Source: Escherichia coli (GTDB lineage: Bacteria > Pseudomonadota > Gammaproteobacteria > Enterobacterales > Enterobacteriaceae). From it: a stretch of DNA of 64,000 nucleotides. The stretch lies in assembly GCF_016026235.1 (NCBI RefSeq), contig NZ_CP065613.1. One strand, written 5' to 3'. Positions 1 through 23,203 of this stretch are shown piece after piece (position 1 is the stretch's first letter; the number at the start of each line of letters is the position of its first letter). The notes under the pieces are model-generated. The model was not told where the DNA came from and searched no databases. It was given only the letters and a program-made list of their open reading frames with translations. A program made the position numbers and the translations under genes.

Positions 1-847
1 CTTTGCGCTGCTGCTTCTCGCGCCCAGCTTATTACTGCTGGGTGGTCTGGTGGCCTGGCCAATGGTGTCGAATATCGAAATCAGTTTTTTACGTCTGCCG
101 CTCAATCCCAACATCGAGTCAACCTTTGTTGGGGTGAGTAACTATGTGCGTATCCTCTCCGAGCCCGGCTTCTGGCACTCGCTGTGGATGACGGTCTGGT
201 ATACCGCGCTGGTGGTGGCGGGCAGCACCGTCCTCGGGCTGGCAGTGGCGATGTTTTTCAACCGCGAGTTCCGCCTGCGCAAAACCGCGCGTTCGCTGGT
301 GATCCTCTCCTACGTAACGCCGTCCATTTCGCTGGTGTTTGCCTGGAAATACATGTTCAACAACGGCTACGGCATTGTGAACTACCTCGGCGTCGATCTT
401 CTGCATCTCTATGAGCAGGCACCACTGTGGTTCGATAATCCGGGCAGTAGCTTTGTGCTGGTGGTGCTGTTCGCCATCTGGCGCTACTTCCCGTATGCCT
501 TTATCTCGTTTCTGGCGATTTTGCAGACCATCGACAAATCGCTGTACGAAGCGGCAGAGATGGATGGCGCTAATGCCTGGCAACGGTTTCGTATCGTCAC
601 GCTGCCCGCGATTATGCCGGTCCTGGCGACGGTGGTGACCCTGCGCACCATCTGGATGTTCTACATGTTCGCGGATGTTTATTTGCTGACGACCAAGGTC
701 GATATTCTCGGTGTATATCTCTACAAAACCGCCTTTGCCTTTAATGACTTAGGGAAAGCGGCGGCGATCTCGGTGGTGCTATTCATCATTATTTTCGCTG
801 TCATTCTGCTGACCAGAAAACGGGTGAACCTCAATGGCAACAAATAA
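1..847 (+). CDS. ycjO: ABC sugar transporter permease, 5' end outside window
   Basis: ORF runs to window start; multi-TM permease sequence in K-12 ycjO position upstream of ycjP. Confidence 0.88.
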   Translation, partial: FALLLLAPSLLLLGGLVAWPMVSNIEISFLRLPLNPNIESTFVGVSNYVRILSEPGFWHSLWMTVWYTALVVAGSTVLGLAVAMFFNREFRLRKTARSLVILSYVTPSISLVFAWKYMFNNGYGIVNYLGVDLLHLYEQAPLWFDNPGSSFVLVVLFAIWRYFPYAFISFLAILQTIDKSLYEAAEMDGANAWQRFRIVTLPAIMPVLATVVTLRTIWMFYMFADVYLLTTKVDILGVYLYKTAFAFNDLGKAAAISVVLFIIIFAVILLTRKRVNLNGNK

Positions 848-1676
848 ACGCACACTCAGTCGCATCGGTTTTTACTGCGGGCTGGCGCTGTTTCTCATCA
901 TCACGCTATTTCCGTTTTTTGTGATGCTGATGACCTCGTTCAAGGGCGCGAAAGAGGCGATCTCACTGCATCCTACGCTGCTGCCGCAGCAGTGGACGCT
1001 GGAGCATTACGTCGACATTTTTAACCCGATGATTTTCCCGTTTGTCGACTACTTCCGTAACAGTCTGGTGGTGTCGGTGGTTTCATCCGTGGTGGCGGTA
1101 TTCCTCGGCATTCTTGGGGCTTACGCGCTTTCCCGCCTGCGCTTTAAAGGTCGGATGACCATCAATGCCAGCTTTTACACGGTGTATATGTTCTCTGGCA
1201 TTTTGCTGGTGGTGCCGCTGTTCAAAATCATCACCGCGCTGGGCATTTACGACACCGAGATGGCGCTGATCATCACCATGGTGACGCAAACTCTGCCCAC
1301 CGCCGTGTTTATGCTGAAAAGCTACTTCGACACCATCCCCGATGAGATCGAAGAAGCGGCGATGATGGATGGCCTCAACCGTCTGCAAATTATCTTCCGC
1401 ATCACCGTGCCGTTGGCGATGTCCGGGCTGATATCCGTGTTCGTCTACTGCTTTATGGTGGCGTGGAACGACTATCTGTTTGCGTCGATTTTCCTCTCCA
1501 GCGCCAGCAATTTCACCTTACCGGTGGGCCTGAACGCGCTGTTCAGTACGCCAGATTACATCTGGGGACGGATGATGGCGGCCTCACTGGTGACCGCATT
1601 GCCGGTGGTGATTATGTATGCGCTTTCGGAACGTTTTATTAAGAGTGGTTTGACCGCCGGTGGCGTGAAGGGCTAA
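834..1676 (+). CDS. ycjP: ABC sugar transporter permease
   Basis: 280-aa ORF, MalG-type permease features, overlaps ycjO end as in the operon. Confidence 0.9.
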   Translation: MATNKRTLSRIGFYCGLALFLIITLFPFFVMLMTSFKGAKEAISLHPTLLPQQWTLEHYVDIFNPMIFPFVDYFRNSLVVSVVSSVVAVFLGILGAYALSRLRFKGRMTINASFYTVYMFSGILLVVPLFKIITALGIYDTEMALIITMVTQTLPTAVFMLKSYFDTIPDEIEEAAMMDGLNRLQIIFRITVPLAMSGLISVFVYCFMVAWNDYLFASIFLSSASNFTLPVGLNALFSTPDYIWGRMMAASLVTALPVVIMYALSERFIKSGLTAGGVKG

Positions 1677-1706
1677 AGCGGCCAGTTTCTTTACAAGGAG
1701 TTTTAA

Positions 1707-2759
1707 ATGAAAAAGTTAGTAGCCACAGCACCCCGTGTTGCTGCGCTGGTTGAGTATGAAGATCGGGCGATTTTAGCCAATGAAGTGAAAATCCGCGTGC
1801 GTTTCGGCGCACCGAAACACGGAACGGAAGTGGTCGACTTCCGCGCCGCCAGCCCGTTTATCGATGAAGACTTTAACGGCGAATGGCAGATGTTCACTCC
1901 GCGTCCGGCAGATGCGCCGCGCGGCATTGAGTTTGGCAAATTCCAGCTTGGCAACATGGTGGTTGGCGACATTATCGAGTGCGGCAGCGACGTTACCGAC
2001 TACGCGGTGGGCGACAGCGTATGCGGCTACGGCCCGCTCTCCGAGACGGTCATCATTAACGCGGTGAATAACTACAAGCTGCGCAAAATGCCGGAAGGCA
2101 GCTCGTGGGAAAACGCCGTTTGTTACGACCCGGCGCAGTTTGCCATGAGCGGCGTGCGCGATGCCAACGTGCGCGTGGGTGATTTTGTTGTGGTGGTAGG
2201 GCTTGGCGCGATTGGTCAAATTGCCATTCAACTGGCGAAACGCGCTGGCGCGTCGGTCGTGATTGGCGTCGATCCTATCGCCCATCGCTGTGATATTGCC
2301 CGTCGCCACGGCGCGGATTTCTGCCTTAACCCCATTGGTACTGACGTAGGCAAAGAGATCAAAACGCTGACCGGCAAGCAGGGTGCCGATGTGATTATCG
2401 AAACCAGCGGCTATGCCGACGCGCTGCAATCGGCGTTCCGCGGTCTGGCCTACGGTGGCACCATCTCCTATGTCGCGTTTGCCAAACCATTTGCTGAAGG
2501 TTTTAACCTCGGACGCGAAGCGCATTTCAATAACGCCAAAATTGTTTTCTCCCGCGCGTGCAGCGAACCGAACCCGGATTATCCGCGCTGGAGCCGTAAG
2601 CGTATTGAAGAAACCTGCTGGGAACTGCTGATGAACGGTTATCTCAATTGCGAAGATTTAATCGACCCGGTAGTGACCTTTGCCAATAGCCCGGAAAGCT
2701 ACATGCAGTATGTCGATCAGCATCCGGAACAGAGCATCAAAATGGGCGTTACGTTTTAA
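1707..2759 (+). CDS. ycjQ: Zn-dependent sugar dehydrogenase (MDR family)
   Basis: 350-aa ORF with GxGxxG Rossmann motif; RBS aaggag upstream; synteny. Confidence 0.9.
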   Translation: MKKLVATAPRVAALVEYEDRAILANEVKIRVRFGAPKHGTEVVDFRAASPFIDEDFNGEWQMFTPRPADAPRGIEFGKFQLGNMVVGDIIECGSDVTDYAVGDSVCGYGPLSETVIINAVNNYKLRKMPEGSSWENAVCYDPAQFAMSGVRDANVRVGDFVVVVGLGAIGQIAIQLAKRAGASVVIGVDPIAHRCDIARRHGADFCLNPIGTDVGKEIKTLTGKQGADVIIETSGYADALQSAFRGLAYGGTISYVAFAKPFAEGFNLGREAHFNNAKIVFSRACSEPNPDYPRWSRKRIEETCWELLMNGYLNCEDLIDPVVTFANSPESYMQYVDQHPEQSIKMGVTF

Positions 2760-2776
2760 TTCAAAGGAATGAAAAA

Positions 2777-3565
2777 ATGAAAATAGGCACACAGAATCAG
2801 GCATTCTTTCCGGAAAACATTCTGGAGAAATTTCGTTATATCAAAGAGATGGGCTTCGATGGTTTTGAGATTGACGGCAAACTGCTGGTCAACAATCTCG
2901 AAGAAGTCAAAGCAGCAATCAAAGAAACCGGTTTACCGGTGACCACCGCCTGCGGTGGCTATGACGGTTGGATTGGCGACTTTATCGAAGAGCGTCGTCT
3001 TAATGGCTTAAAGCAGATCGAACGCATTCTCGAAGCGCTGGCAGAAGTGGGGGGTAAGGGTATCGTCGTTCCGGCAGCGTGGGGCATGTTTACCTTCCGC
3101 TTACCGCCGATGACCTCGCCGCGTAGCCTGGACGGCGACCGCAAAATGGTGAGTGATTCCCTGCGCGTACTGGAACAGGTCGCCGCGCGTACCGGAACCG
3201 TGGTGTATCTCGAACCGTTAAACCGCTATCAGGATCATATGATCAACACCCTCGCCGATGCCCGCCGTTACATCGTCGAAAACGATCTTAAACATGTACA
3301 GATTATCGGCGATTTCTATCACATGAATATCGAAGAAGATAACCTGGCGCAGGCGCTGCATGACAACCGCGACCTGCTCGGTCATGTGCATATTGCGGAT
3401 AACCATCGCTACCAGCCGGGCAGCGGCACCCTGGATTTCCACGCGCTGTTTGAACAGCTGCGCGCGGATAACTATCAGGGCTATGTAGTGTACGAAGGGC
3501 GTATCCGGGCGGAAGATCCTGCCCAGGCGTACCGTGATTCGTTGGCCTGGTTGCGTACCTGCTAA
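2777..3565 (+). CDS. ycjR: sugar phosphate isomerase/epimerase (xylose isomerase-like TIM barrel)
   Basis: 262-aa ORF; synteny in ycj operon. Confidence 0.88.
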   Translation: MKIGTQNQAFFPENILEKFRYIKEMGFDGFEIDGKLLVNNLEEVKAAIKETGLPVTTACGGYDGWIGDFIEERRLNGLKQIERILEALAEVGGKGIVVPAAWGMFTFRLPPMTSPRSLDGDRKMVSDSLRVLEQVAARTGTVVYLEPLNRYQDHMINTLADARRYIVENDLKHVQIIGDFYHMNIEEDNLAQALHDNRDLLGHVHIADNHRYQPGSGTLDFHALFEQLRADNYQGYVVYEGRIRAEDPAQAYRDSLAWLRTC

Positions 3566-3574
3566 GAGGTCTTT

Positions 3575-4630
3575 GTGAAAAGTGCAATGACAAGCTCTCC
3601 GCTGCGGGTCGCGATAATAGGCGCAGGCCAAGTGGCGGATAAGGTTCATGCTTCGTACTACTGCACCCGCAACGATCTGGAACTGGTGGCTGTCTGTGAC
3701 AGCCGCCTTTCCCAGGCGCAGGCGCTGGCAGATAAATACGGTAATGCATCCGTGTGGGACGATCCGCAGGCCATGCTGCTGGCGGTGAAACCTGATGTGG
3801 TTAGCGTCTGCTCACCTAACCGTTTTCATTACGAACATACCCTGATGGCACTGGAAGCGGGCTGCCATGTGATGTGCGAAAAACCGCCCGCCATGACGCC
3901 AGAACAGGCGCGGGAAATGTGCGATACCGCGCGCAAACTGGGCAAGGTGCTGGCCTACGACTTTCACCATCGTTTTGCGCTCGATACGCAACAGCTGCGT
4001 GAACAGGTGACCAACGGCGTTTTGGGAGAGATTTACGTTACCACCGCCCGCGCCCTGCGTCGCTGCGGCGTTCCCGGCTGGGGCGTCTTTACCAATAAAG
4101 AACTGCAGGGTGGTGGCCCGCTGATCGACATCGGCATTCATATGCTGGATGCTGCGATGTATGTGCTGGGCTTTCCGGCGGTGAAAAGCGTGAATGCGCA
4201 TAGCTTTCAAAAGATCGGCACGCAAAAGAGCTGTGGTCAATTTGGCGAGTGGGATCCGGCAACTTATAGCGTCGAAGATTCGCTGTTTGGCACCATTGAA
4301 TTTCATAACGGCGGCATTCTGTGGCTGGAAACGTCATTTGCACTCAACATCCGCGAACAGTCGATTATGAACGTCAGCTTTTGTGGTGATAAAGCCGGTG
4401 CGACGCTGTTTCCAGCACATATCTACACCGATAACAACGGTGAATTAATGACGCTGATGCAACGGGAAATGGCAGACGACAACCGCCATTTGCGCAGCAT
4501 GGAAGCCTTTATCAATCACGTACAGGGCAAGCCCGTGATGATAGCCGACGCCGAGCAGGGGTACATCATCCAGCAACTGGTGGCGGCGTTGTATCAATCC
4601 GCAGAAACAGGGACGCGTGTGGAATTATGA
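3575..4630 (+). CDS. ycjS: Gfo/Idh/MocA-family NAD-dependent oxidoreductase
   Basis: 351-aa ORF, N-terminal Rossmann motif IIGAGQVA; synteny. Confidence 0.88.
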   Translation: MKSAMTSSPLRVAIIGAGQVADKVHASYYCTRNDLELVAVCDSRLSQAQALADKYGNASVWDDPQAMLLAVKPDVVSVCSPNRFHYEHTLMALEAGCHVMCEKPPAMTPEQAREMCDTARKLGKVLAYDFHHRFALDTQQLREQVTNGVLGEIYVTTARALRRCGVPGWGVFTNKELQGGGPLIDIGIHMLDAAMYVLGFPAVKSVNAHSFQKIGTQKSCGQFGEWDPATYSVEDSLFGTIEFHNGGILWLETSFALNIREQSIMNVSFCGDKAGATLFPAHIYTDNNGELMTLMQREMADDNRHLRSMEAFINHVQGKPVMIADAEQGYIIQQLVAALYQSAETGTRVEL

Positions 4631-6894
4631 CCAGGCCAGTAACGTTATCAGAACCCCATTTCAGCCAGCATACCCTGAACAAGTATGCATCGCTGATGGC
4701 GCAGGGGAACGGCTATCTTGGGCTTCGCGCCAGCCATGAAGAAGATTACACGCGCCAGACGCGAGGGATGTATCTGGCGGGGCTGTATCATCGGGCGGGA
4801 AAAGGTGAAATCAACGAACTGGTGAACCTGCCTGATATCTTGGGGATGGAGATTGCCATAAATGGTGAGGTTTTCTCGTTATCCCGCGAAGCCTGGCAGC
4901 GTGAACTTGACTTTGCCAGTGGAGAATTACGCCGTAGCGTTGTCTGGCGTACCAGCAACGGCACAGGTTACACCATCGCCAGCCGTCGCTTTGTTTCGGC
5001 AGACCAACTGCCGCTCATTGTGCTGGAAATCACTATTACGCCACTGGACGCCGACGCGTCAGTGCTGATTTCAACAGGTATCGACGCTACGCAAACCAAC
5101 CACGGTCGCCAACATCTCGACGAAACCCAGGTGCGGGTGTTTGGTCAGCATCTGATGCAGGGGATCTACACCACCCAGGATGGACGCAGTGATGTGGCCA
5201 TCAGCTGTTGCTGTATGGTGAGCGGTGATGTGCAGCAATGCTATACCGCCAAAGAGCGCCGTTTGCAGCAACATACCAGTGCGCAGCTTCATGCAGGCGA
5301 GACAGTGACGTTGCAAAAACTGGTGTGGATCGACTGGCGGGATGACAGGCAAGCCGTTTTAGACGAGTGGGGCAGCGCGTCGCTTCGCCAGCTTGAAATG
5401 TGCGCGCAGCAGAGTTACGACCAACTTCTTGCAGTATCAACAGAAAACTGGCGTCAATGGTGGCAGAAACGTCGTATCACGGTAAATGGCGGCGAAGCGC
5501 ACGATCAGCAAGCGTTAGATTATGCGCTTTATCATCTGCGCATCATGACGCCTGCCCACGACGAGCGCAGCAGCATTGCGGCAAAAGGCTTAACCGGCGA
5601 AGGCTACAAAGGCCACGTTTTCTGGGATACAGAAGTATTTTTGTTACCGTTTCATCTGTTTAGCGATCCGACGGTTGCCCGAAGTTTACTGCGTTATCGC
5701 TGGCACAACTTGCCAGGCGCGCAGGAGAAAGCGCGACGCAACGGCTGGCAGGGCGCGCTATTTCCGTGGGAAAGCGCGCGCAGCGGCGAAGAAGAGACGC
5801 CGGAATTTGCCGCCATTAACATTCGCACCGGGCTGCGGCAAAAAGTGGCCTCGGCGCAGGCGGAACATCATCTGGTGGCCGATATCGCCTGGGCGGTTAT
5901 TCAATACTGGCAGACCACGGGGGATGAAAGTTTCATTGCGCATGAAGGCATGGCGCTACTTCTGGAAACTGCAAAGTTCTGGATTAGCCGCGCGGTGAGG
6001 GTTAACGACCGTCTGGAAATTCATGATGTTATTGGGCCTGACGAATATACCGAACATGTCAATAATAACGCCTTCACCAGCTATATGGCGTATTACAACG
6101 TCCAGCAGGCGCTGAGTATTGCCCGCCAGTTTGGCTGTAGCGACGATGCGTTTATCCATCGCGCCGAAATGTTCCTTAAAGAACTGCGGCTGCCAGAAAT
6201 TCAGCCCGACGGCGTTTTGCCGCAGGATGATTCGTTTATGGCTAAGCCGGCGATTAATCTGGCGAAATACAAAGCGGCGGCGGGGAAGCAAACCATTCTG
6301 CTGGATTATTCACGCGCAGAAGTGAACGAGATGCAAATCCTCAAACAAGCTGATGTGGTGATGCTCAATTACATGCTGCCGGAGCAGTTCTCAGCGGCAT
6401 CGTGTCTTGCCAATCTGCAATTTTATGAACCGCGCACTATTCACGACTCGTCATTAAGTAAAGCAATCCACGGCATTGTTGCCGCACGCTGTGGCCTGCT
6501 GACCCAAAGTTATCAGTTCTGGCGCGAGGGGACTGAAATCGATCTTGGTGCTGATCCGCATAGTTGTGATGATGGTATCCATGCTGCCGCAACTGGCGCT
6601 ATCTGGCTGGGGGCGATTCAGGGTTTTGCCGGGGTGAGCGTGCGTGACGGTGAATTGCATCTCAATCCGGCGTTACCTGAGCAGTGGCAACAGTTGTCTT
6701 TCCCTCTGTTCTGGCAGGGCTGCGAATTACAGGTCACGCTCGACGCGCAGCGTATTGCGATTCGAACTTCTGCGCCCGTTTCACTGCGTTTGAACGGGCA
6801 GCTTATATCCGTGGCTGAAGAATCTGTTTTCTGTTTGGGTGATTTTATTTTGCCCTTCAATGGGACCGCTACCACACATCAGGAGGATGAATGA
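4627..6894 (+). CDS. ycjT: kojibiose phosphorylase (glycoside hydrolase family 65)
   Basis: 755-aa ORF; GH65 size and sequence; overlapping start/stop with neighbours. Confidence 0.9.
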
Positions 6895-7550
6895 AACTGC
6901 AAGGGGTAATTTTCGATCTGGATGGTGTAATCACCGATACCGCGCATCTGCATTTCCAGGCGTGGCAGCAGATTGCCGCTGAAATTGGCATCAGCATTGA
7001 TGCGCAGTTTAACGAATCCCTAAAAGGGATCAGCCGCGATGAGTCTCTGCGGCGCATTCTGCAACACGGGGGCAAAGAGGGCGACTTTAACTCGCAGGAG
7101 AGGGCGCAACTGGCGTATCGCAAAAATCTGCTCTATGTCCACTCACTGCGCGAGTTGACGGTCAACGCTGTTCTACCCGGCATTCGCTCTTTGCTGGCAG
7201 ATCTCCGTGCACAGCAGATCCCGGTTGGGCTGGCTTCTGTCTCCCTGAATGCGCCGACGATTTTAGCGGCGCTGGAGCTGCGCGAGTTTTTCACCTTCTG
7301 CGCGGATGCTTCCCAACTTAAAAACTCGAAACCGGACCCGGAAATCTTTCTCGCCGCCTGTGCAGGGCTGGGCGTGCCGCCGCAGGCATGTATCGGCATT
7401 GAAGATGCGCAGGCGGGCATTGACGCCATTAACGCCAGCGGTATGCGCTCGGTGGGGATCGGCGCGGGCATAACCGGGGCGCAATTACTATTGCCTTCAA
7501 CGGACTCCCTGACCTGGTCGCGGTTATCGGCCTTCTGGCAAAACGTATAG
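6891..7550 (+). CDS. ycjU: beta-phosphoglucomutase (HAD superfamily)
   Basis: 219-aa ORF with HAD motif [10 protein letters not shown] near N-terminus. Confidence 0.9.
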
Positions 7551-7563
7551 CAAAGGAATCAAC

Positions 7564-8646
7564 ATGGCTCAGCTTTCGTTACAACATATTCAAAAAATCT
7601 ACGATAACCAGGTGCATGTGGTGAAGGACTTCAACCTGGAAATTGCCGATAAAGAGTTCATCGTGTTTGTCGGTCCGTCAGGCTGCGGTAAGTCGACCAC
7701 CCTGCGCATGATTGCTGGGCTTGAGGAGATCAGCGGCGGCGATCTGTTGATCGACGGCAAACGAATGAATGACGTTCCAGCCAAAGCACGCAATATAGCG
7801 ATGGTGTTCCAGAACTACGCGTTGTATCCGCATATGACGGTTTACGACAACATGGCGTTTGGCCTGAAGATGCAAAAAATCGCCAAAGAGGTGATTGATG
7901 AGCGGGTGAACTGGGCGGCGCAAATTCTCGGCCTGCGTGAGTACCTGAAACGCAAGCCGGGCGCGCTTTCCGGCGGGCAACGCCAGCGTGTGGCGCTCGG
8001 GCGGGCGATTGTGCGCGAAGCGGGCGTGTTTTTAATGGATGAACCACTCTCTAACCTTGATGCCAAGCTGCGCGTGCAAATGCGCGCAGAGATCAGCAAG
8101 CTGCACCAGAAGCTGAATACCACCATGATCTACGTGACCCACGATCAGACCGAAGCGATGACCATGGCGACGCGGATTGTGATTATGAAGGATGGGATTG
8201 TTCAGCAAGTTGGTGCGCCGAAAACGGTTTATAACCAACCAGCGAATATGTTTGTTGCCGGATTTATTGGATCACCGGCGATGAATTTTATTCGTGGCAC
8301 GATCGATGGCGATAAATTCGTTACGGAAACGCTTAAATTAACCATTCCCGAAGAGAAATTAGCGGTTCTGAAAACACAGGGAAGTTTGCATAAGCCCATC
8401 GTGATGGGAATACGTCCGGAAGATATTCATCCGGACGCGCAAGAGGAAAATAACATTTCCGCCAAAATTAGCGTGGCAGAATTAACCGGTGCGGAATTTA
8501 TGCTCTACACCACGGTTGGGGGGCACGAGTTAGTGGTCCGTGCTGGTGCGTTAAATGATTATCATGCAGGAGAAAATATCACTATTCATTTTGATATGAC
8601 GAAATGTCATTTCTTTGATGCAGAAACGGAAATAGCAATTCGCTAA
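7564..8646 (+). CDS. ycjV: ABC transporter ATP-binding protein (MalK-like), intact
   Basis: 360-aa uninterrupted ORF with Walker A GPSGCGKST, signature LSGGQRQR, Walker B FLMDEP. Confidence 0.9.
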   Translation: MAQLSLQHIQKIYDNQVHVVKDFNLEIADKEFIVFVGPSGCGKSTTLRMIAGLEEISGGDLLIDGKRMNDVPAKARNIAMVFQNYALYPHMTVYDNMAFGLKMQKIAKEVIDERVNWAAQILGLREYLKRKPGALSGGQRQRVALGRAIVREAGVFLMDEPLSNLDAKLRVQMRAEISKLHQKLNTTMIYVTHDQTEAMTMATRIVIMKDGIVQQVGAPKTVYNQPANMFVAGFIGSPAMNFIRGTIDGDKFVTETLKLTIPEEKLAVLKTQGSLHKPIVMGIRPEDIHPDAQEENNISAKISVAELTGAEFMLYTTVGGHELVVRAGALNDYHAGENITIHFDMTKCHFFDAETEIAIR

Positions 8647-8690
8647 ATACAGGGGGAAGGCATTCCCCCAGAATAATACAAGGAACAATA

Positions 8691-9596
8691 ATGAAAAAGT
8701 TATTACCCTGTACCGCACTGGTGATGTGTGCGGGAATGGCCTGCGCACAGGCCGAGGAAAAGAACGACTGGCACTTTAATATCGGCGCGATGTACGAAAT
8801 AGAAAACGTCGAGGGTTATGGCGAAGATATGGATGGGCTGGCGGAGCCTTCAGTCTATTTTAATGCCGCCAACGGGCCGTGGAGAATTGCTCTGGCCTAT
8901 TATCAGGAAGGGCCGGTAGATTATAGCGCGGGTAAACGTGGAACGTGGTTTGATCGCCCGGAGCTGGAGGTGCATTATCAGTTCCTCGAAAACGATGATT
9001 TCAGTTTCGGCCTGACCGGCGGTTTCCGTAATTATGGTTATCACTACGTTGATGAACCGGGTAAAGACACGGCGAATATGCAGCGCTGGAAAATCGCGCC
9101 AGACTGGGATGTGAAACTGACTGACGATTTACGTTTCAACGGTTGGTTGTCGATGTATAAATTTGCCAACCATCTGAACACTACCGGTTACGCTGATACC
9201 CGTGTCGAAACGGAAACAGGTCTGCAATATACCTTCAACGAAACGGTTGCCTTGCGAGTGAACTATTATCTCGAGCGCGGCTTCAATATGGACGACAGCC
9301 GCAATAACGGTGAGTTTTCCACGCAAGAAATTCGCGCCTATTTGCCGCTGACGCTCGGCAACCACTCGGTGACGCCGTATACGCGCATTGGGCTGGATCG
9401 CTGGAGTAACTGGGACTGGCAGGATGATATTGAACGTGAAGGCCATGATTTTAACCGTGTAGGTTTATTTTACGGTTATGATTTCCAGAACGGACTTTCC
9501 GTTTCGCTGGAATACGCGTTTGAGTGGCAGGATCACGACGAAGGCGACAGTGATAAATTCCATTATGCAGGTGTCGGCGTAAATTACTCGTTCTGA
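8691..9596 (+). CDS. ompG: outer membrane porin OmpG
   Basis: 301-aa ORF with signal peptide and aromatic-rich beta-barrel sequence ending in F. Confidence 0.9.
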   Translation: MKKLLPCTALVMCAGMACAQAEEKNDWHFNIGAMYEIENVEGYGEDMDGLAEPSVYFNAANGPWRIALAYYQEGPVDYSAGKRGTWFDRPELEVHYQFLENDDFSFGLTGGFRNYGYHYVDEPGKDTANMQRWKIAPDWDVKLTDDLRFNGWLSMYKFANHLNTTGYADTRVETETGLQYTFNETVALRVNYYLERGFNMDDSRNNGEFSTQEIRAYLPLTLGNHSVTPYTRIGLDRWSNWDWQDDIEREGHDFNRVGLFYGYDFQNGLSVSLEYAFEWQDHDEGDSDKFHYAGVGVNYSF

Positions 9597-9609
9597 TAAT
9601 GGGCTAAAT

Positions 9610-9700
9610 TGCCGGATGCGGCGCGAGTACTTTATCCGATCTATAAATGTAGGCCGGATAAGATGCGCTAGCATCGCATCCGGCATTCAGGCAAGGTAGC
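9610..9700. repeat. REP (repetitive extragenic palindrome) elements
   Basis: gccggatgcggcg / tgtaggccggataag...gcatccggca palindromic units between convergent genes. Confidence 0.6.
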
Positions 9701-9706
9701 TGGTAT

Positions 9707-10705
9707 TTATTTCAGCGTCATATGCGTGGCAACGGTAATATTCTGTGGTGACGGTTTTCCAGAAATTAAGCGGAATAATAACTCGCAGCTTTTTTGACCT
9801 AACTCCTGCGTCGGAACATCGATGCCGCCTGGTGCAGGCGTTAAAATAAACGACAGCGTTTCATTACTATAACCCACCACCGCTAACTGCTGCGGAATAG
9901 CAATATTTTTCTCTGCCGCCGCACGATAAATGCTCATTAATTTCAGGCTGTCAGTGGCAAACACTGCCTCAGGCAACGGTGACTGACTTAATAATTGCCG
10001 TGCTGCTTGCAGTGCTGTTTCATGGGTATAACCGCCATCAACAATCCATTCATCACGCACTGCAATATTATGCGCGGACAGACTTTGCTTATAGCCATTA
10101 ACGCGGTCAACCGAAACATGGACATCAAGCGACGCATGCAGACAGGCAATATTTTGATGCCCACTTTCAATTAATGCATCGGTCAACGCAATGCTGTCGC
10201 CAAAATTATCGGTATCGACAGAATAAACATGGGCATATTGACCTTCAACTTTGCCAATCACCACCACAGGAATATCGTATTTATCAAGTTGGGCAAAAAA
10301 TGACTCATCCGCTGGCGAACTTAGCATAATAATGCCTTTAATCATTTTCTGCTTAATTTTGCTTTCACATTTTTGTAAGTCTTCTGCCAGGTTGTGCGAC
10401 GTTTGTAATATCACGTCGAAACCTTCTTCTTCCGCTTTGGCGGTGATGGCATGTAGAACTTCTGAGAAAAACGGATTACCCGCCGTAGTTTTGGTCGAAC
10501 GGGTAGAAATCACCATAATGGCATCAAAACCCGAAGAGGTCAGCGCGCGGGCCAGCTTGTTTGGCTGATACTGTAATTCTTCAATGGCCCGTAACACTTT
10601 TTCGCGCGCTTCCGGGGAGATATTAGTTTGCTTATTCAGCACGCGTGATACGGTGGATTTTGATACGCCTGCAACCCTGGCAATATCATAAATAGTAGGG
10701 GACAT
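9707..10705 (-). CDS. ycjW: LacI-family transcriptional regulator
   Basis: 332-aa ORF; N-terminal [27 protein letters not shown]; synteny. Confidence 0.9.
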
Positions 10706-10859
10706 AGGTCAGGAACTCCGTCCGAACGTGAATGCTGCACATCTTATGGAGTTCGCCCGTCGATGACAACACGGGCAGTTGATAATCAATGGCCTGGCCC
10801 CCACATTCATATCCTTACGAATGATTTTTTTCTGGTCTTCAGAGCAGCACAGGACAGCA

Positions 10860-12257
10860 ATGAAGCGACTTAAAAATGAACTTAATGCGCTGGTGAATCG
10901 GGGTGTCGACAGACATCTGCGCCTCGCCGTAACCGGACTAAGCCGCAGCGGCAAAACAGCGTTTATCACTGCGATGGTCAATCAGTTGCTCAATATTCAC
11001 GCCGGAGCACGCTTGCCGCTGTTAAGCGCGGTGCGTGAAGAGCGTCTGCTGGGCGTAAAACGCATTCCTCAGCGTGACTTTGGCATTCCGCGCTTCACAT
11101 ATGATGAAGGACTGGCGCAGTTATATGGCGATCCTCCCGCCTGGCCGACGCCTACGCGCGGCGTCAGCGAAATTCGCCTGGCGCTACGCTATAAATCGAA
11201 CGATTCGCTGCTGCGCCACTTTAAGGATACCTCCACGCTGTATCTGGAGATTGTGGATTACCCTGGCGAATGGCTGCTCGACCTGCCGATGCTGGCGCAG
11301 GATTACTTAAGCTGGTCGCGGCAGATGACAGGCTTGCTCAATGGTCAGCGCGGCGTGTGGTCGGCGAAATGGCGGATGATGTGCGAAGGTCTGGACCCGT
11401 TAGCGCCTGCCGACGAAAACCGACTGGCAGACATTGCCGCCGCGTGGACCGATTATCTCCACCACTGTAAACAGCAGGGGCTGCACTTTATTCAGCCTGG
11501 GCGCTTTGTCTTGCCGGGGGATATGGCAGGTGCGCCCGCGCTGCAATTCTTCCCGTGGCCGGATGTCGATGCCTGGGGCGAGTCCAAACTGGCGCAGGCC
11601 GATAAGCACACCAATGCCGGAATGCTGCGCGAGCGGTTTAATTATTACTGCGAGAAGGTGGTGAAGGGGTTCTATAAGAATCATTTTCTGCGCTTTGACC
11701 GCCAGATTGTGCTGGTGGATTGCCTGCAACCTCTCAACAGTGGGCCACAGGCATTTAATGATATGCGTCTGGCACTGACGCAGCTGATGCAAAGTTTCCA
11801 CTACGGGCAGCGCACGCTGTTTCGCCGCTTATTCTCGCCGGTTATCGACAAACTGCTGTTTGCCGCGACGAAAGCGGACCATGTAACGGTCGATCAGCAC
11901 GCCAATATGGTTTCATTACTGCAACAACTGATTCAGGATGCCTGGCAAAATGCGGCGTTTGAAGGGATTAGTATGGATTGCCTGGGGCTGGCCTCGGTGC
12001 AGGCGACCACCAGCGGCATTATTGACGTCAACGGCGAGAAAATTCCGGCATTGCGCGGTAACCGGCTCAGCGATGGTGCGCCTCTCACCGTTTACCCCGG
12101 TGAAGTTCCTGCGCGTTTGCCCGGTCAGGCGTTCTGGGACAAGCAAGGGTTCCAGTTTGAAGCGTTTCGCCCGCAGGTGATGGATGTCGACAAACCACTA
12201 CCGCATATTCGTCTTGATGCTGCGCTGGAATTTTTAATAGGAGATAAATTGCGATGA
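10860..12257 (+). CDS. ycjX: conserved P-loop protein YcjX
   Basis: Start chosen at [12 protein letters not shown] within longer ORF; Walker A GLSRSGKT; synteny. Confidence 0.85.
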
Positions 12258-13315
12258 CCGAACCGTTAAAACCACGTATTGATTTCGACGGTCCGCTGGA
12301 GGTCGATCAGAATCCAAAATTCAGGGCGCAGCAGACCTTTGACGAAAATCAGGCGCAAAATTTTGCCCCGGCCACGCTCGACGAAGCGCAGGAAGAAGAG
12401 GGGCAAGTCGAAGCGGTAATGGACGCAGCGTTACGTCCGAAACGCAGCCTGTGGCGCAAAATGGTGATGGGCGGGCTGGCTCTGTTTGGCGCAAGCGTTG
12501 TCGGGCAGGGCGTGCAGTGGACAATGAATGCCTGGCAAACTCAGGACTGGGTGGCGCTGGGTGGATGTGCCGCTGGGGCATTGATTATCGGCGCTGGCGT
12601 AGGTTCTGTGGTAACAGAGTGGCGGCGCTTATGGCGCTTGCGACAGCGCGCCCATGAACGCGACGAAGCGCGTGATTTATTGCATAGCCACGGAACCGGC
12701 AAAGGCCGCGCATTTTGCGAAAAACTGGCGCAGCAGGCGGGCATCGATCAGTCACATCCGGCGCTGCAACGCTGGTATGCCTCAATCCATGAAACGCAAA
12801 ACGACCGTGAAGTGGTCAGTTTGTATGCGCATTTGGTCCAGCCAGTTTTAGATGCCCAGGCGCGGCGCGAAATCAGCCGTTCGGCAGCGGAATCAACGTT
12901 GATGATTGCGGTCAGCCCGCTGGCGCTGGTGGATATGGCATTTATCGCCTGGCGCAATCTGCGTTTGATTAATCGCATCGCCACGCTGTATGGCATTGAA
13001 CTGGGGTATTACAGCCGTTTGCGCCTGTTCAAGCTGGTATTGCTGAATATCGCTTTCGCCGGAGCCAGCGAATTGGTGCGCGAAGTGGGGATGGACTGGA
13101 TGTCGCAAGATCTCGCTGCTCGTTTGTCTACCCGCGCAGCTCAGGGGATTGGTGCTGGGCTTCTGACTGCACGACTCGGGATTAAAGCTATGGAGCTTTG
13201 CCGCCCACTGCCGTGGATTGACGATGACAAACCTCGCCTCGGGGATTTCCGTCGTCAGCTTATCGGTCAGGTGAAAGAAACGCTGCAAAAAGGCAAAACG
13301 CCCAGCGAAAAATAA
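12254..13315 (+). CDS. ycjF: inner membrane protein YcjF
   Basis: 353-aa ORF overlapping ycjX stop; hydrophobic central segments. Confidence 0.88.
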
Positions 13316-13374
13316 TGCAATATCGGGTGCTGACCGGATATCTTTACGCCGAAGTGCCCGTTTTTCCGTCTTTG

Positions 13375-13392
13375 TGTCAATGATTGTTGACA
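13375..13392. promoter_or_regulatory. TyrR-box-like palindrome upstream of tyrR
   Basis: TGTCAA-N6-TTGACA palindrome about 70 bp upstream of tyrR start. Confidence 0.45.
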
Positions 13393-13462
13393 GAAACCTT
13401 CCTGCTATCCAAATAGTGTCATATCATCATATTAATTGTTCTTTTTTCAGGTGAAGGTTCCC

Positions 13463-15004
13463 ATGCGTCTGGAAGTCTTTTGTGAAGACCGACTCGGTCT
13501 GACCCGCGAATTACTCGATCTACTCGTGCTAAGAGGCATTGATTTACGCGGTATTGAGATTGATCCCATTGGGCGAATCTACCTCAATTTTGCTGAACTG
13601 GAGTTTGAGAGTTTCAGCAGTCTGATGGCCGAAATACGCCGTATTGCAGGTGTTACCGATGTGCGTACTGTCCCGTGGATGCCTTCCGAACGTGAGCATC
13701 TGGCGTTGAGCGCGTTACTGGAGGCGTTGCCTGAACCTGTGCTCTCTGTCGATATGAAAAGCAAAGTGGATATGGCGAACCCGGCGAGCTGTCAGCTTTT
13801 TGGGCAAAAATTGGATCGCCTGCGCAACCATACCGCCGCACAATTGATTAACGGCTTTAATTTTTTACGTTGGCTGGAAAGCGAACCGCAAGATTCCCAT
13901 AACGAGCATGTTGTTATTAATGGACAGAACTTCCTGATGGAGATTACGCCTGTTTATCTTCAGGATGAAAATGATCAACACGTCCTGACAGGTGCGGTGG
14001 TGATGTTGCGATCAACGATTCGTATGGGCCGTCAGTTGCAAAATGTCGCCGCCCAGGACGTCAGCGCCTTCAGTCAAATTGTCGCTGTCAGCCCGAAAAT
14101 GAAGCATGTTGTCGAACAGGCGCAGAAACTGGCGATGCTAAGCGCGCCGCTGCTGATTACGGGTGACACAGGTACAGGTAAAGATCTTTTTGCCTACGCC
14201 TGCCATCAGGCAAGCCCAAGAGCGAGCAAACCTTACCTGGCGCTGAACTGTGCGTCTATACCGGAAGATGCGGTCGAGAGTGAGCTGTTTGGTCATGCTC
14301 CGGAAGGGAAGAAAGGATTCTTTGAGCAGGCGAACGGTGGTTCGGTGCTGTTGGATGAAATAGGGGAAATGTCACCACGGATGCAGGCGAAATTACTGCG
14401 TTTCCTTAATGATGGCACTTTCCGTCGGGTTGGCGAAGACCATGAGGTGCATGTCGATGTGCGGGTGATTTGCGCTACGCAGAAGAATCTGGTCGAACTG
14501 GTGCAAAAAGGCGTGTTCCGTGAAGATCTCTATTATCGTCTGAACGTGTTGACGCTCAATCTGCCGCCGCTACGTGACTGTCCGCAGGACATCATGCCGT
14601 TAACCGAGCTGTTCGTCGCCCGCTTTGCCGACGAGCAGGGCGTGCCGCGTCCGAAACTGGCCGCTGACCTGAATACTGTACTTACGCGTTATGCGTGGCC
14701 GGGAAATGTGCGGCAGTTAAAGAACGCTATCTATCGCGCACTGACACAACTGGACGGTTATGAGCTGCGTCCACAGGATATTTTGTTGCCGGATTATGAC
14801 GCCGCAACGGTAGCCGTGGGCGAAGATGCGATGGAAGGTTCGCTGGACGAAATCACCAGCCGTTTTGAACGCTCGGTATTAACCCAGCTTTATCGCAATT
14901 ATCCCAGCACGCGCAAACTGGCAAAACGTCTCGGCGTTTCACATACCGCGATTGCCAATAAGTTGCGGGAATATGGTCTGAGTCAGAAGAAGAACGAAGA
15001 GTAA
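13463..15004 (+). CDS. tyrR: transcriptional regulator TyrR
   Basis: Start at MRLEVFCEDR; sigma54-type AAA+ domain GDTGTGKD and C-terminal HTH. Confidence 0.92.
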   Translation: MRLEVFCEDRLGLTRELLDLLVLRGIDLRGIEIDPIGRIYLNFAELEFESFSSLMAEIRRIAGVTDVRTVPWMPSEREHLALSALLEALPEPVLSVDMKSKVDMANPASCQLFGQKLDRLRNHTAAQLINGFNFLRWLESEPQDSHNEHVVINGQNFLMEITPVYLQDENDQHVLTGAVVMLRSTIRMGRQLQNVAAQDVSAFSQIVAVSPKMKHVVEQAQKLAMLSAPLLITGDTGTGKDLFAYACHQASPRASKPYLALNCASIPEDAVESELFGHAPEGKKGFFEQANGGSVLLDEIGEMSPRMQAKLLRFLNDGTFRRVGEDHEVHVDVRVICATQKNLVELVQKGVFREDLYYRLNVLTLNLPPLRDCPQDIMPLTELFVARFADEQGVPRPKLAADLNTVLTRYAWPGNVRQLKNAIYRALTQLDGYELRPQDILLPDYDAATVAVGEDAMEGSLDEITSRFERSVLTQLYRNYPSTRKLAKRLGVSHTAIANKLREYGLSQKKNEE

Positions 15005-15010
15005 GCGCGA

Positions 15011-15042
15011 ATATGCCTGATGGTGCAACACCATCAGGCATA
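15011..15042. terminator. bidirectional hairpin terminator between tyrR and tpx
   Basis: Perfect palindrome atatgcctgatggtg...caccatcaggcatat between convergent genes. Confidence 0.6.
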
Positions 15043-15047
15043 TTAAC

Positions 15048-15554
15048 TTATGCTTTCAGTACAGCCAGAGCTGCTTCGTAATCCGGCTCGGTGGTGATTT
15101 CATCCACCAGCTGACTGAAAATCACATTGTCATTTTCATCAATAACCACAACGGCACGCGCTGCCAGACCTTTCAGTGGGCCATCAGCAATTGCCACACC
15201 GTAGGCTTGCAGGAATTCAGCGTTACGGAAAGTGGAGAGGGTGATAACGTTGTTCAGACCTTCTGCGCCGCAGAAACGAGACTGGGCGAACGGCAGATCG
15301 GCAGAGATACACAGCACAACGGTGTTGTCGATCTCGGTTGCCAGTTGGTTAAACTTACGTACTGATGCGGCGCAAACACCGGTATCAATACTCGGGAAAA
15401 TGTTCAGCACTTTGCGTTTACCCGCAAACTGACCGAGGGTGACGTCAGACAGATCTTTTGCCACGAGAGTAAAAGTCTGCGCTTTGCTACCCGCCTGCGG
15501 GATGGAGTTGGCGACTGTAACCGGGTTGCCCTGGAAATGAACGGTTTGTGACAT
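15048..15554 (-). CDS. tpx: thiol peroxidase
   Basis: 168-aa [17 protein letters not shown]; peroxiredoxin sequence. Confidence 0.95.
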
Positions 15555-15672
15555 GATTATCTTTCCTGTTTACATATAGTTAACGTCACACCTAGTTTAT
15601 GCTAACTGTCAATAACACAGCAAACGCTATTTGCGCTTAATCCGCAGACCACCGCGACAACAAGGAGTAAAG

Positions 15673-16638
15673 ATGAGAACCGTTAAGGTATTTGAGGAAG
15701 CCTGGCCCTTACATACCCCGTTTGTGATTGCCCGGGGAAGTCGCAGTGAAGCGCGCGTGGTGGTGGTTGAACTGGAAGAAGAGGGTATTAAAGGCACCGG
15801 CGAATGCACGCCGTATCCGCGTTATGGAGAAAGTGATGCCTCGGTAATGGCGCAAATTATGAGCGTCGTACCGCAATTAGAGAAAGGGCTGACACGGGAG
15901 GAGTTGCAAAAAATTCTCCCTGCCGGCGCAGCACGTAATGCGCTGGATTGTGCATTGTGGGATCTGGCGGCGCGAAAACAGCAGCAATCGCTGGCTGATT
16001 TGATCGGCATAACGCTTCCCGAGACAGTCACCACTGCACAGACGGTAGTCATCGGTACGCCTGATCAGATGGCCAATAGCGCATCAACACTCTGGCAGGC
16101 CGGCGCGAAATTATTGAAAGTGAAGCTGGATAACCATCTTATCAGTGAGCGGATGGTGGCAATTCGCACAGCTGTGCCCGATGCCACGCTGATCGTTGAT
16201 GCAAATGAATCATGGCGTGCAGAAGGGTTGGCGGCACGTTGCCAGCTATTGGCGGATTTAGGCGTTGCTATGCTTGAACAACCGCTTCCTGCGCAGGACG
16301 ATGCGGCACTGGAGAATTTTATTCATCCGTTACCGATTTGTGCTGATGAAAGTTGTCATACTCGTAGCAATCTGAAGGCGCTGAAAGGGCGCTATGAGAT
16401 GGTTAACATTAAGCTCGATAAAACCGGGGGGCTGACGGAAGCGCTGGCGCTGGCGACTGAAGCACGTGCACAAGGTTTTCGTCTGATGCTGGGCTGCATG
16501 TTGTGTACCTCTCGTGCCATTAGCGCCGCTTTACCGCTGGTGCCGCAGGTCAGTTTCGCCGATCTTGACGGACCGACCTGGCTGGCGGTAGATGTGGAAC
16601 CGGCGCTTCAGTTCACGACGGGCGAATTGCATCTTTAG
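15673..16638 (+). CDS. ycjG: L-Ala-D/L-Glu epimerase (enolase superfamily)
   Basis: Start at MRTVKVFEEAW within longer ORF; synteny. Confidence 0.85.
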   Translation: MRTVKVFEEAWPLHTPFVIARGSRSEARVVVVELEEEGIKGTGECTPYPRYGESDASVMAQIMSVVPQLEKGLTREELQKILPAGAARNALDCALWDLAARKQQQSLADLIGITLPETVTTAQTVVIGTPDQMANSASTLWQAGAKLLKVKLDNHLISERMVAIRTAVPDATLIVDANESWRAEGLAARCQLLADLGVAMLEQPLPAQDDAALENFIHPLPICADESCHTRSNLKALKGRYEMVNIKLDKTGGLTEALALATEARAQGFRLMLGCMLCTSRAISAALPLVPQVSFADLDGPTWLAVDVEPALQFTTGELHL

Positions 16639-17341
16639 GATGCCAGCGCAGCAAGTTTGCCATCGCAAAGAGATATTTTTCGCTGGCTTCGTCGGAGGAG
16701 ATGGGCGGAAACTCTGCGGTGATGCAATGCAAGTTCAGATCTGCACACCAACTGCCGAAAGAGCCAGGCGTTTCATAACCGACGCTGGTTACCAGAGGCA
16801 ATTCAAACGCCTGAGCCAGCCATTCGCCTAATTCGCTGTGTCTGGGATCTTCAATACAGGCCAGTGGATCGTGGAATGAGACCACCCAGGCAGGTTGAAT
16901 GCGGTGTATAAGCTGGCACAGCGCCTGGGTTTCAGGTTCGGAGCCAGGTTTGTCACCAGTCAGTAATACGACATCACGTTCTTCAGCGGCGCTGTTCCAG
17001 CGATAAACCGTTTCACCTTCCTTCCAGTTTGCCGCCGGAAAGTTTCTGTTTAAATCCACACCATTAGCATTGGCCCGTAACCCCAGCTGGCAGCCGTCAG
17101 GATTCACACACAGCACCACATGATGGCGGCGCAAAGAAGGTGTCAAAGTCCGCAGAGCACAGGAGAGCGTGACGACCGAAGAGTTTTCATCACCGTGAGT
17201 GCCAGCCAGAATCAAACCACTTTCGCGACTGGCTGCAGGGGCCGGAAACCAGATTAACGGCGCGCCCAATAATGAACGTCCGTAATGTTCTGTTCCGGGC
17301 GGAAATGCGCCGCGTTCGGCGCGTGGGCGGGTTACGGTCAT
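16613..17341 (-). CDS. mpaA: murein tripeptide amidase (zinc carboxypeptidase family)
   Basis: Start at MTVTRPRAERG; convergent 26-bp overlap with ycjG end. Confidence 0.85.
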   Translation of the reverse strand: MTVTRPRAERGAFPPGTEHYGRSLLGAPLIWFPAPAASRESGLILAGTHGDENSSVVTLSCALRTLTPSLRRHHVVLCVNPDGCQLGLRANANGVDLNRNFPAANWKEGETVYRWNSAAEERDVVLLTGDKPGSEPETQALCQLIHRIQPAWVVSFHDPLACIEDPRHSELGEWLAQAFELPLVTSVGYETPGSFGSWCADLNLHCITAEFPPISSDEASEKYLFAMANLLRWHPKDAIRPS

Positions 17342-17631
17342 GATCGTCTCTGGTTCAGGAAGTATTACAGGCAGTGTTGTGCAAATTTTGCGGATTATCA
17401 AATCCTTTTCTTCAACGCTATGTCATCGATCTTGTATCACTTTTTTGCCGGAAGTTGTTTGTATTTTTATTGATGTGCAGATATTAGAATTGTCGTAATG
17501 TTATATACATGGCGTATTTTATTCTTACTGGTTCTACACATGTTAATCGCATCTGATTGATCAGTTCACCTTAATAAGTTTAATAAATCGTACTGCACAT
17601 AGTACAGTACGATGGTGGCTATATAATTGAT

Positions 17632-18270
17632 TTACATGAAGAATGGCTTATCGCCATCAGTCCCGGGTTGATTGATGCCTATATTCTCATCAATGTGTTT
17701 CTCAGGTTTATCGATGATATCTGTAATTAATGCTGCGACACTCTTACGTGATACGATCGTACCTTTGAATGGTTCATTGCGTGAGGTAAGCTCATAATCA
17801 ATAATATCTTCATCCGTCAGCCAGGCAGGGCGAAGAATTGTATATTCCAGTCCAGAAGCCTCAATTGCATCCGCAGCCCTGCGGAATGGTTTTAGGGGCT
17901 CACCAATAACTGCATTATTCCATTCGCCAAATTTTCCAGGAACTTCATCATAAATGCCGAGGGAAAGAACAAAGATCAGACGTTTAACATCACAGGCTTT
18001 CATCGCAGCGATCACTGAATTTGCCTGAATATCTAAATCTTCCCCCGTAAGGTTGGCATACACAATATCCTGTCCCTGCATGGCCTGCTTCAGTGCTGCA
18101 TGATTCAGTACATCCCCCATAATAATCTGGCTATTAGTTGGATAGGGTTTGTGTATTTTTGCTGGCTGACGAGCAAATAAAGTTTGTTTAATGGTTTGTT
18201 TATCTGCCAGTTGATTAATCACATGGCGGGCTATCTGACCGCCAGCACCAAGAATGAGTACATTTTTCAT
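17632..18270 (-). CDS. NAD(P)-binding NmrA-like protein
   Basis: N-terminal Rossmann motif MKNVLILGAGGQIARH; lies between mpaA and the hydrolase genes. Confidence 0.7.
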   Translation of the reverse strand: MKNVLILGAGGQIARHVINQLADKQTIKQTLFARQPAKIHKPYPTNSQIIMGDVLNHAALKQAMQGQDIVYANLTGEDLDIQANSVIAAMKACDVKRLIFVLSLGIYDEVPGKFGEWNNAVIGEPLKPFRRAADAIEASGLEYTILRPAWLTDEDIIDYELTSRNEPFKGTIVSRKSVAALITDIIDKPEKHIDENIGINQPGTDGDKPFFM

Positions 18271-18870
18271 AATATTTCTCATGAAACTTATCACAGATGG
18301 GTGTTGAAAAAAGGAATAACTTTTTCCAGCTCCTCCTGAACAGCTTCCGGTTTGTCATACAGTTCATAATGTGAGAAATCGGGTAATGAAACTAACTGAC
18401 GATCCTGCGAAACCATCGCCCGGCCATAGACTTCCAGTCCATCACGATAAGCACCGAAGGCACCGACTTTTTCACCAACTACTACCATCACCGGCTGAGT
18501 CAGTAACACTTCAGTAAATGCGAAGGCATCCCAGGCCAGCGTTTTCTGTGCATGTGAGAACAACATTTTTGTCGCACCTCCCGGTTGTTGCCCGCGTGGT
18601 GTTTTATAGTAGTCAGTTGCTTCATAAACATCGCGTTCGGTCAGTCCATGGGCTTTTGCTGCATCCAGGCTGGCGGGAAGTAATTCGTTGATCTGTAATT
18701 CTCCACCACGAGCCTCTTTGGTTCGTTGCGACGCCATTGCATTCAATGCGCCAATCGGATCGTAATTGCTGAAACCTTCCCGAAAAAGACGCCCGATATT
18801 AACACCCGTAATACTCACTACAGCTTTAATTCGTTTTTCTGTCAGCGCGGCATTAATGGCATAGCCACCC

Positions 18871-20320: not shown

Positions 20321-20670
20321 CCCCCCACACACACCCAGCACGCCAATGCGTTCAGCATCAACATATGGCAGAGTTACTGCATAATCGATAACACGGCTAA
20401 TATCCTCTACGCGCTGTGTCGGATCTTCTATCCAACGAGGCTCCCCACCAGATTCTCCCTGGAAACTGGCGTCATAAGCGAGAACGACATAGCCTTTTTC
20501 AGCCAATGCCTTGCCATAGATATTGCCAGACGTCTGCTCCTTACAACTGCCAAAAGGATGGACGCTGATAATCGCCGGATACTGTTTTGACTCATCAAAA
20601 TTTGGTGGAAACTGAATATTGGCAGCAATATGCCAGGCCATATCACTATTGCGGATTTGAATATGTTTCA

Positions 20671-22628: not shown

Positions 22629-23203
22629 CACTACTTGCTGATACATTAATTTAATTCTTCTCTTAACGTATTCTCAGTTCCTTTCAACGTTTTGGTTATT
22701 TTTTATTCTTCGTACAATGGCGACAGATGCTGATTATGATACCGAAAACTGGTTTGAACGTGTGAAGCCCGAACGTAGTGTTCGGTGTTCTATGTGCTTT
22801 GCCGCATTTTGGCGTCTATTATTTACACTAAATCTGATTTAATATATTGATACATAAAACATTTTATGTTTCCTGTGTCACTTTTTTGATGGAAGTTGTT
22901 TGCATTTCTTTAAGGCGAAACAAATAATTACGCATCAATTTTAATGTCGGTTAGAGGGAAACTTATGAAGCACTCTGTTTCAGTCACGTGTTGTGCGCTG
23001 TTGGTCAGCAGCATTTCTCTTTCGTATGCTGCAGAAGTTCCGAGCGGCACAGTACTGGCAGAGAAGCAGGAGCTGGTGCGCCACATTAAAGATGAGCCTG
23101 CGTCGCTGGATCCCGCTAAAGCCGTGGGCCTGCCAGAGATTCAGGTCATTCGCGATCTGTTTGAAGGACTGGTGAATCAGAACGAGAAAGGGGAGATTGT
23201 CCC

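Follow-up and report, generated by a model that had tools for sequence, protein, structure and literature searches.

The ycjV gene is annotated as a pseudogene in Escherichia coli K-12, and an open copy of it in another strain raises two questions: which of the two alleles is the exception, and does an uninterrupted ycjV mean that the transport and catabolic locus around it can work? We addressed these questions in a 64,000-nucleotide stretch of E. coli DNA (hereafter the window), in which ycjV occupies positions 7564-8646. Our main reading, to which we assign a probability of about 0.95, is that this is the ordinary wild-type ycjV, encoding the ATPase of a type I carbohydrate importer, and that K-12 has lost one G from the gene.

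The ycjV reading frame and its product

The open reading frame listing of the window contains a single ATG-started frame across this interval, with 360 amino acids and zero internal stops. Its start lies 13 nt past the ycjU stop codon, and a Shine-Dalgarno-like AAGGAA is found 7 nt upstream of the ATG. The gene and the sequence elements of its predicted product are as follows.

7564..8646, plus strand: ycjV coding sequence, 360 aa, intact, predicted nucleotide-binding subunit of the YcjNOP-V carbohydrate ABC importer (open reading frame, domains, MsmX alignment, K-12 comparison)
7672..7695, plus strand: Walker A (P-loop) GPSGCGKS, residues 37-44 (motif scan)
7966..7980, plus strand: ABC signature LSGGQ, residues 135-139 (motif scan)
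8026..8043, plus strand: Walker B VFLMDE, residues 155-160 (motif scan)
8140-8142, plus strand: H-switch H193 (motif scan)
8269..8616, plus strand: C-terminal regulatory region, OB_MalK and TOBE_2 (Pfam coordinates)

The motif scan also placed the Q-loop at Q83 and the D-loop at SNLD (residues 163-166), downstream of Walker B, so that the motifs follow the canonical order of Walker A, Q-loop, signature, Walker B with the catalytic Glu, D-loop and H-switch. The initial annotation had described ycjV here as an intact 360-aa ABC ATPase with all of its motifs, and the uninterrupted frame and complete motif set agree with that description. Judged by these motifs and by the domain and family matches below, the frame is clearly a real gene and not a chance open reading frame.

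Pfam places the protein among ABC nucleotide-binding domains (NBD; ABC_tran, PF00005, E = 1.3e-31, 110.5 bits, cutoff 25) and identifies OB_MalK at residues 236-288 (E = 1.2e-14, 55.3 bits, cutoff 27) and TOBE_2 at residues 282-351 (E = 5.1e-10, 39.8 bits, cutoff 21). An NBD followed by a MalK OB fold and TOBE is the architecture of CUT1 (MalK/UgpC/MsmX-type) ATPases. Among NCBIfam models, that of the UgpC subfamily scores highest (484 bits, cutoff 432). The score against the MalK equivalog NF008233 is 431.6 bits, below its cutoff of 568, and YcjV is therefore not MalK. E. coli MalK and UgpC share with YcjV the family, the motifs and the C-terminal regulatory fold, but they differ from it in genomic context and partner proteins.

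The best match to YcjV among PDB structures is Bacillus subtilis MsmX (6yir, E = 8.8e-150), which aligns end to end and has the same layout of NBD and OB/TOBE domains; full-length alignments were also obtained with the AlgS, MalK and SugC structures, those of MalK at 1e-99. YcjV and MsmX have been reported to be 64% identical, and recombinant E. coli YcjV to have ATPase activity (PMC7658222). MsmX is an orphan gene product and a multitask ATPase, whereas YcjV is encoded within the operon of its own transporter. Four charged MsmX residues highlighted in the same study (D77, R104, E110 and K154; PMC7658222) are N77, Q104, V110 and G154 in the window protein by ungapped alignment. The replacement of these residues is in line with the reported failure of YcjV to replace MsmX in B. 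subtilis (PMC7658222), and on these two grounds we did not class YcjV as a multitask ATPase of the MsmX/MsmK type.

The K-12 allele and the species norm

In NC_000913.3 (MG1655) the locus is divided into ycjV b1318 (1380821..1381789) and ymjB b4524 (1381789..1381902), both annotated as pseudogenes. RefSeq flags the ycjV CDS of BW25113 as 'frameshifted', and there are zero differences between MG1655 and BW25113 across the gene. Alignment of the window gene with that of K-12 (97.7% nucleotide identity) revealed 24 substitutions and one G deleted in K-12. The deletion falls in the following run.

8518..8523, plus strand: G6 homopolymer in codons G319-G320, G5 in K-12 at 1381774-1381778 of NC_000913.3 (alignment, sequence, allele counts)

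Loss of one G takes the K-12 frame into ...VGG-TS-stop, so that the product ends at 322 aa and not, as in the window, at 360. The missing residues 321-360 take in 31 of the 70 positions matched by TOBE_2 (about half), and the truncated K-12 protein would be predicted to have lost its function; MalK or UgpC might stand in for it. The substitutions are synonymous at 22 of the 24 sites, and the two replacements (A232S and G273E) are the two amino-acid differences across the first 320 residues. This predominance of synonymous differences fits a gene kept under purifying selection and damaged recently in K-12. The statement in the initial annotation that ycjV is a pseudogene in K-12 MG1655 is borne out both by the reference annotation and by the one-base frameshift, and the alignment that it proposed found the K-12 gene frameshifted rather than equally intact.

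We then asked how the two alleles are distributed among 5,426 complete RefSeq E. coli genomes. At least 80% of ycjV is present in 4,980 of them, nearly always as an annotated 1083-bp CDS. All but 2 of the 5,001 matching records have at least 95% nucleotide identity and the window retains the gene order ycjT-ycjU-ycjV-ompG with a divergent ycjW, both as expected of orthologues. An exact 71-mer centred on G6 occurs in 4,378 of the 5,426 genomes and the exact 70-mer with G5 in 369. Among the G5 matches listed, 57 of 60 are K-12 derivatives or laboratory-sized strains; carriers include MG1655, C600, J53, DH5alpha, DH1, RR1, NCM3722, ER strains and evolved MG1655 lines. The ycjV genes of BW25113 and MC4100 align across 1082 bases, which is the G5 length, and B-lineage strains such as Rosetta2(DE3) carry a 1083-bp ycjV. 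A 360-aa frame with G6 was present in all 15 of the non-K-12 loci that we fetched.

The exact YcjV protein of the window is found on at least 1000 contigs in the protein collection and is the commonest E. coli allele. It does not differ in kind from the YcjV of most non-K-12 strains (e.g. WP_000057985.1, PMC7658222), which is the product of the same gene, likewise of 360 aa, in the same position with ycjU/pgmB on one side and ompG on the other. Because exact G6 matches outnumber G5 matches by 4,378 to 369, intact ycjV is the wild type and norm of the species and the K-12 allele is the exception. The framing of an intact ycjV as a feature of this particular strain thus needs correction: the gene is intact, but that is the ordinary state in E. 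coli. Intact ycjV is already known, and the noteworthy allele is that of K-12.

Two G5 genes annotated as 'frameshifted' were observed outside K-12, both with ycjV at positions 583-1664 of the extracted locus. In strain 2014C-3051 (NZ_CP027338.1, locus L020), 21 sites of the gene distinguish it from K-12 and 5 from the window. Strain 08-00022 (NZ_CP013662.1, locus L021) has 5 within-gene differences from K-12, together with divergent flanks. These two cases represent either slippage that has recurred at the run or homopolymer errors in the assemblies, and with G5 on two unrelated wild haplotypes the G6 run may be a hotspot of recurrent mutation.

A homopolymer, where this one-base lesion lies, is a classic site of sequencing error, and the G5 calls in 2014C-3051 and 08-00022 could be such errors; the K-12 pseudogene might itself be an artefact of sequencing or annotation that reflects no true difference between strains. 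This reading is effectively refuted by the presence of G5 in 369 independently sequenced genomes (MG1655, BW25113, DH5alpha, DH1, C600, J53, MC4100, NCM3722 and others). MG1655 and BW25113 agree across the whole gene, and the curated annotation of NC_000913.3 and PGAP both call a pseudogene or frameshifted gene.

The occurrence of the change from G6 to G5 on at least three ycjV haplotypes (K-12, 2014C-3051 and 08-00022) might instead indicate a contingency site, at which slippage switches the importer on and off and both lengths are normal phases. We consider this very improbable. Six G residues are short for a phase-variable tract, non-K-12 genomes with G5 are a handful among about 5,000, and the wild loci that we fetched uniformly carry G6. 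Furthermore, K-12 derivatives separated by decades all retain G5 with no reversion, and both wild G5 cases could be errors of assembly. A stable wild-type gene with a lesion peculiar to K-12 remains the preferred interpretation.

The ycj operon, its regulation and its chromosomal setting

The window opens 35 nt inside ycjO (K-12 coordinate 1373257), so that ycjM, ycjN, the start of ycjO and the operon promoter lie outside it. The remaining genes of the locus are given below with amino-acid differences counted against K-12.

1..847, plus strand: ycjO, permease, partial, first 35 nt missing (K-12 comparison)
834..1676, plus strand: ycjP, permease, 280 aa, protein identical to K-12 with 0 differences (K-12 comparison)
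1707-2759, plus strand: ycjQ, K-12 length, 3 differences (K-12 comparison)
2777-3565, plus strand: ycjR, K-12 length, 1 difference (K-12 comparison)
3575-4630, plus strand: ycjS, K-12 length, 2 differences (K-12 comparison)
4627..6894, plus strand: ycjT, kojibiose phosphorylase, 755 aa, 19 differences (open reading frame, K-12 annotation)
6891..7550, plus strand: ycjU (pgmB), beta-phosphoglucomutase, 219 aa, 4 differences (open reading frame, K-12 annotation)
8691..9596, plus strand: ompG, 301 aa, monomeric porin of the outer membrane and final gene of the operon, 2 differences (open reading frame, K-12 comparison)
9707..10705, minus strand: ycjW, intact, 332 aa, operon repressor of the LacI family, 5 differences (open reading frame, K-12 comparison, PMC6599011)

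All of the genes from ycjP through ycjU, together with ompG and ycjW, have their K-12 lengths and zero internal stops. By the product names of the K-12 annotation, ycjQ, ycjR and ycjS encode guloside/glucoside dehydrogenases and epimerase. The YcjT allele of the window is extremely common (47,665 blocks, with loci 98.1-98.7% identical), and the window is 97.8% identical to K-12.

To view the genes upstream of the window we used contigs that encode its rarer YcjU allele. One draft contig (GCA_050054195.1, JBNHSK010000007.1; L015) is 100.000% identical to window positions 1-17550 and ends close to the ISEc20 of the window, as expected of a short-read assembly. On this contig ycjM, ycjN and ycjO are all intact; they encode 559, 430 and 293 aa and differ from K-12 at 2, 3 and 1 amino acids, respectively. 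The state of ycjM, ycjN and the ycjO start is thus that of L015, possibly another isolate than the source of the window. Taken over the window and L015, the partners of YcjV are an SBP_bac_1 protein (YcjN) and two BPD_transp_1 permeases, which is the genomic context of a CUT1 importer. In a separate locus with the same YcjU allele from an unrelated assembly (L018, 11801-12701), ompG is called in two pieces (55 aa and 257 aa), which suggests a frameshift or stop in ompG of that strain, where ycjV is intact.

Two YcjW ChIP peaks have been described in K-12 (Luhachack et al., PMC6599011), and a repeated 14-mer is a candidate for the operator.

6861..6874, plus strand: candidate YcjW operator, 14-mer TGGGACCGCTACCA, 17 nt before the ycjU ATG (sequence)

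The 14-mer is partly palindromic with a central CG, and an identical copy precedes the ycjM ATG by 13 nt in K-12 and in L015. In addition to the window copy, matches were located in L002 (4191-4204 and 14119-14132) and L015 (44-57), and the 19-kb K-12 locus contains no further copies beyond the ycjM and ycjU sites. Since these positions fit both ChIP peaks, the element is likely the YcjW operator, an assignment made by position, as the motif is not printed in the text of PMC6599011. In that study YcjW represses ycjM-V and ompG, strongly so under laboratory conditions, and the repressor comes off its DNA in vitro in the presence of kojibiose (PMC6599011).

The 44-nt spacer between ycjV and ompG contains a hairpin.

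8652..8669, plus strand: 7-bp G+C-rich hairpin in the ycjV-ompG spacer (dG -13.6 kcal/mol, z -2.96)

A T tract following this hairpin is absent on the plus strand, and read-through into ompG is therefore expected. No sigma-70-like or other promoter-like site above chance was found around ycjV. Both features are consistent with a transcript that runs from the upstream genes through ycjV into ompG, and co-expression of the operon in the window strain would follow from such an arrangement.

The lineage of the window is rich in insertion sequences, with three ISEc60 and one ISEc20 copies in 64 kb. The ISEc60 copies are 99.5-99.9% identical to each other.

23200-24509, minus strand: ISEc60 (IS4-family) copy 1, in mppA, which it disrupts near codon 80; about 10 bp of target are duplicated, AGATTGTCCC
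30105-31415, minus strand: ISEc60 copy 2, in the abgT 3' remnant
45102-46403, minus strand: ISEc60 copy 3, in a prophage recE-like gene

Full-length ISEc60 is present in 14 genomes of the complete-genome set; among them are CFSAN029787, with copies on its chromosome and on two plasmids, and FDAARGOS_943, with copies in at least 38 places. The best match to window positions 1-12000 among the 5,426 genomes is 99.0% identical. The closest complete relative is FDAARGOS_943 (NZ_CP065615.1, locus L004), which matches positions 1-8620 at 99.965% with 3 mismatches. In this strain the 3' end of ycjV holds an IS1A, about 26 nt ahead of the stop codon, which leaves a product of 353 aa (L004, 14001-17155), and an ISEc60 directly past the IS1A is followed by uidA; the chromosome is rearranged and ompG no longer follows ycjV. 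The disrupted ycjV and displaced ompG indicate that the locus is dispensable in this clade, though it is intact in the window.

Other differences from K-12 were observed across the window. Positions 17471-20614, between mpaA and ycjY, hold about 3.1 kb that is absent from K-12, which has only ymjC/ymjD remnants there. Between 31541 and 35544, abgB, abgA, abgR and most of abgT of K-12 are replaced by three other genes; at least 80% of this segment is covered in 1,316 complete genomes, making it a common alternative form. The IS5F located between ynaI and ynaJ in K-12 is absent at 27081-27084, where the junction is clean. Positions 41575-64000 contain a Rac-like lambdoid prophage beside ttcA, as is Rac in K-12; its similarity to K-12 Rac is patchy (82-95% in blocks), and its best complete-genome match is strain VL40 (80% covered at 97.3%).

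17632-18294, minus strand: NAD(P)H-binding protein gene, in the 3.1-kb segment
18291-18818, minus strand: open reading frame without a Pfam match, in the 3.1-kb segment
19098-20294, plus strand: ISEc20 transposase (IS110-family), in the 3.1-kb segment
31924-32724, minus strand: AraC-family regulator, in the abg replacement
32818-33849: HlyD-family protein, in the abg replacement
33846-34976: DHA2 MFS efflux permease, in the abg replacement
41575-42810, minus strand: prophage integrase

Is the locus functional?

The initial annotation had called the ycjMNOPQRSTUV locus probably functional here. This holds insofar as the genes are intact across the window and L015; the support is that of genetic intactness, and part of it comes from outside the window. 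An alternative is that ycjV is open but silent or functionally dead here, through a missense change, loss of the promoter or of an upstream gene, or because the operon as a whole is cryptic; ompG is cryptic in K-12. Several observations lend themselves to this view: ycjM, ycjN and the promoter region lie outside the window, the genome is IS-rich and its nearest complete relative carries IS1A in ycjV, sites resembling sigma-70 promoters near ycjV do not rise above chance, and YcjW represses the operon strongly in the laboratory. Nevertheless, we regard a silent or dead gene as unlikely, given that the protein is the commonest allele of the species, every catalytic motif is present, and 22 of the 24 substitutions relative to K-12 leave the protein unchanged. 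Conservation extends to ycjW and to both candidate operators, and the contig identical to window positions 1-17550 has intact ycjMNO and a candidate operator upstream of ycjM.

If ycjV is the wild-type ATPase of our main reading, its mode of action can be proposed by analogy with its family. The importer would consist of YcjV as cytoplasmic ATPase, YcjN as lipoprotein binding protein, and YcjO and YcjP as permeases, an assignment consistent with the treatment of YcjN, YcjO, YcjP and YcjV as one transporter in PMC11543891. The ycjV gene is located within the YcjW-repressed ycjMNOPQRSTUV-ompG operon, between the ycjT/ycjU pair and ompG. Substrate would cross the outer membrane via OmpG and be delivered by YcjN to YcjOP, beneath which a YcjV homodimer, joined through its C-terminal OB/TOBE domains as in its homologues MalK and MsmX, would close on two ATP at interfaces between Walker A/Walker B and the signature motif of the partner subunit. 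Hydrolysis involving E160 and H193 would then drive the alternating-access cycle of the permeases on the substrate received from YcjN.

According to Luhachack et al. (PMC6599011), who cite Mukherjee 2018, MG1655 fails to grow when kojibiose is its only carbon source, and deletion of ycjW gives it no help on this sugar (PMC6599011). YcjN bound none of the sugars screened, kojibiose among them (PMC11543891). Both the lack of growth of MG1655 on kojibiose and the lack of a phenotype or ligand for YcjNOP may be due to the ycjV frameshift, and not to absent enzymes or an unsuitable inducer, but we find this explanation doubtful and offer it tentatively. If it is true, strains with G6 would import the true substrate of the operon, be it kojibiose, glucosylglycerate or a guloside. 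The accessible ycj-operon literature that discusses YcjV as the transporter ATPase does not mention the K-12 frameshift. Searches for ymjB, or for a K-12 pseudogene together with ycj, returned nothing relevant, and we found no report of repair of the K-12 G run or of a kojibiose test of a G6 strain. K-12 ycjV has been used as an integration site alongside loci such as ilvG, ygaY, yghX and ylbE (PMC11731478); our reading, which that paper does not state, is that these loci were chosen as neutral pseudogene sites.

As the ycjV/ymjB pseudogene already stands in the K-12 reference annotation, the lesion carries little weight as a discovery. Its bearing is on the interpretation of ycj-operon work, most of which was done in K-12; this work deals with kojibiose phosphorylase, the pathway for gulosides, the structure of YcjN and the regulon of YcjW. 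The ycjV gene has also been listed among those needed by EHEC for colonisation of the bovine gut, as cited in PMC8009128. Because the K-12 transporter is without a full-length ATPase, negative growth and ligand results obtained in that background may not hold for wild E. coli.
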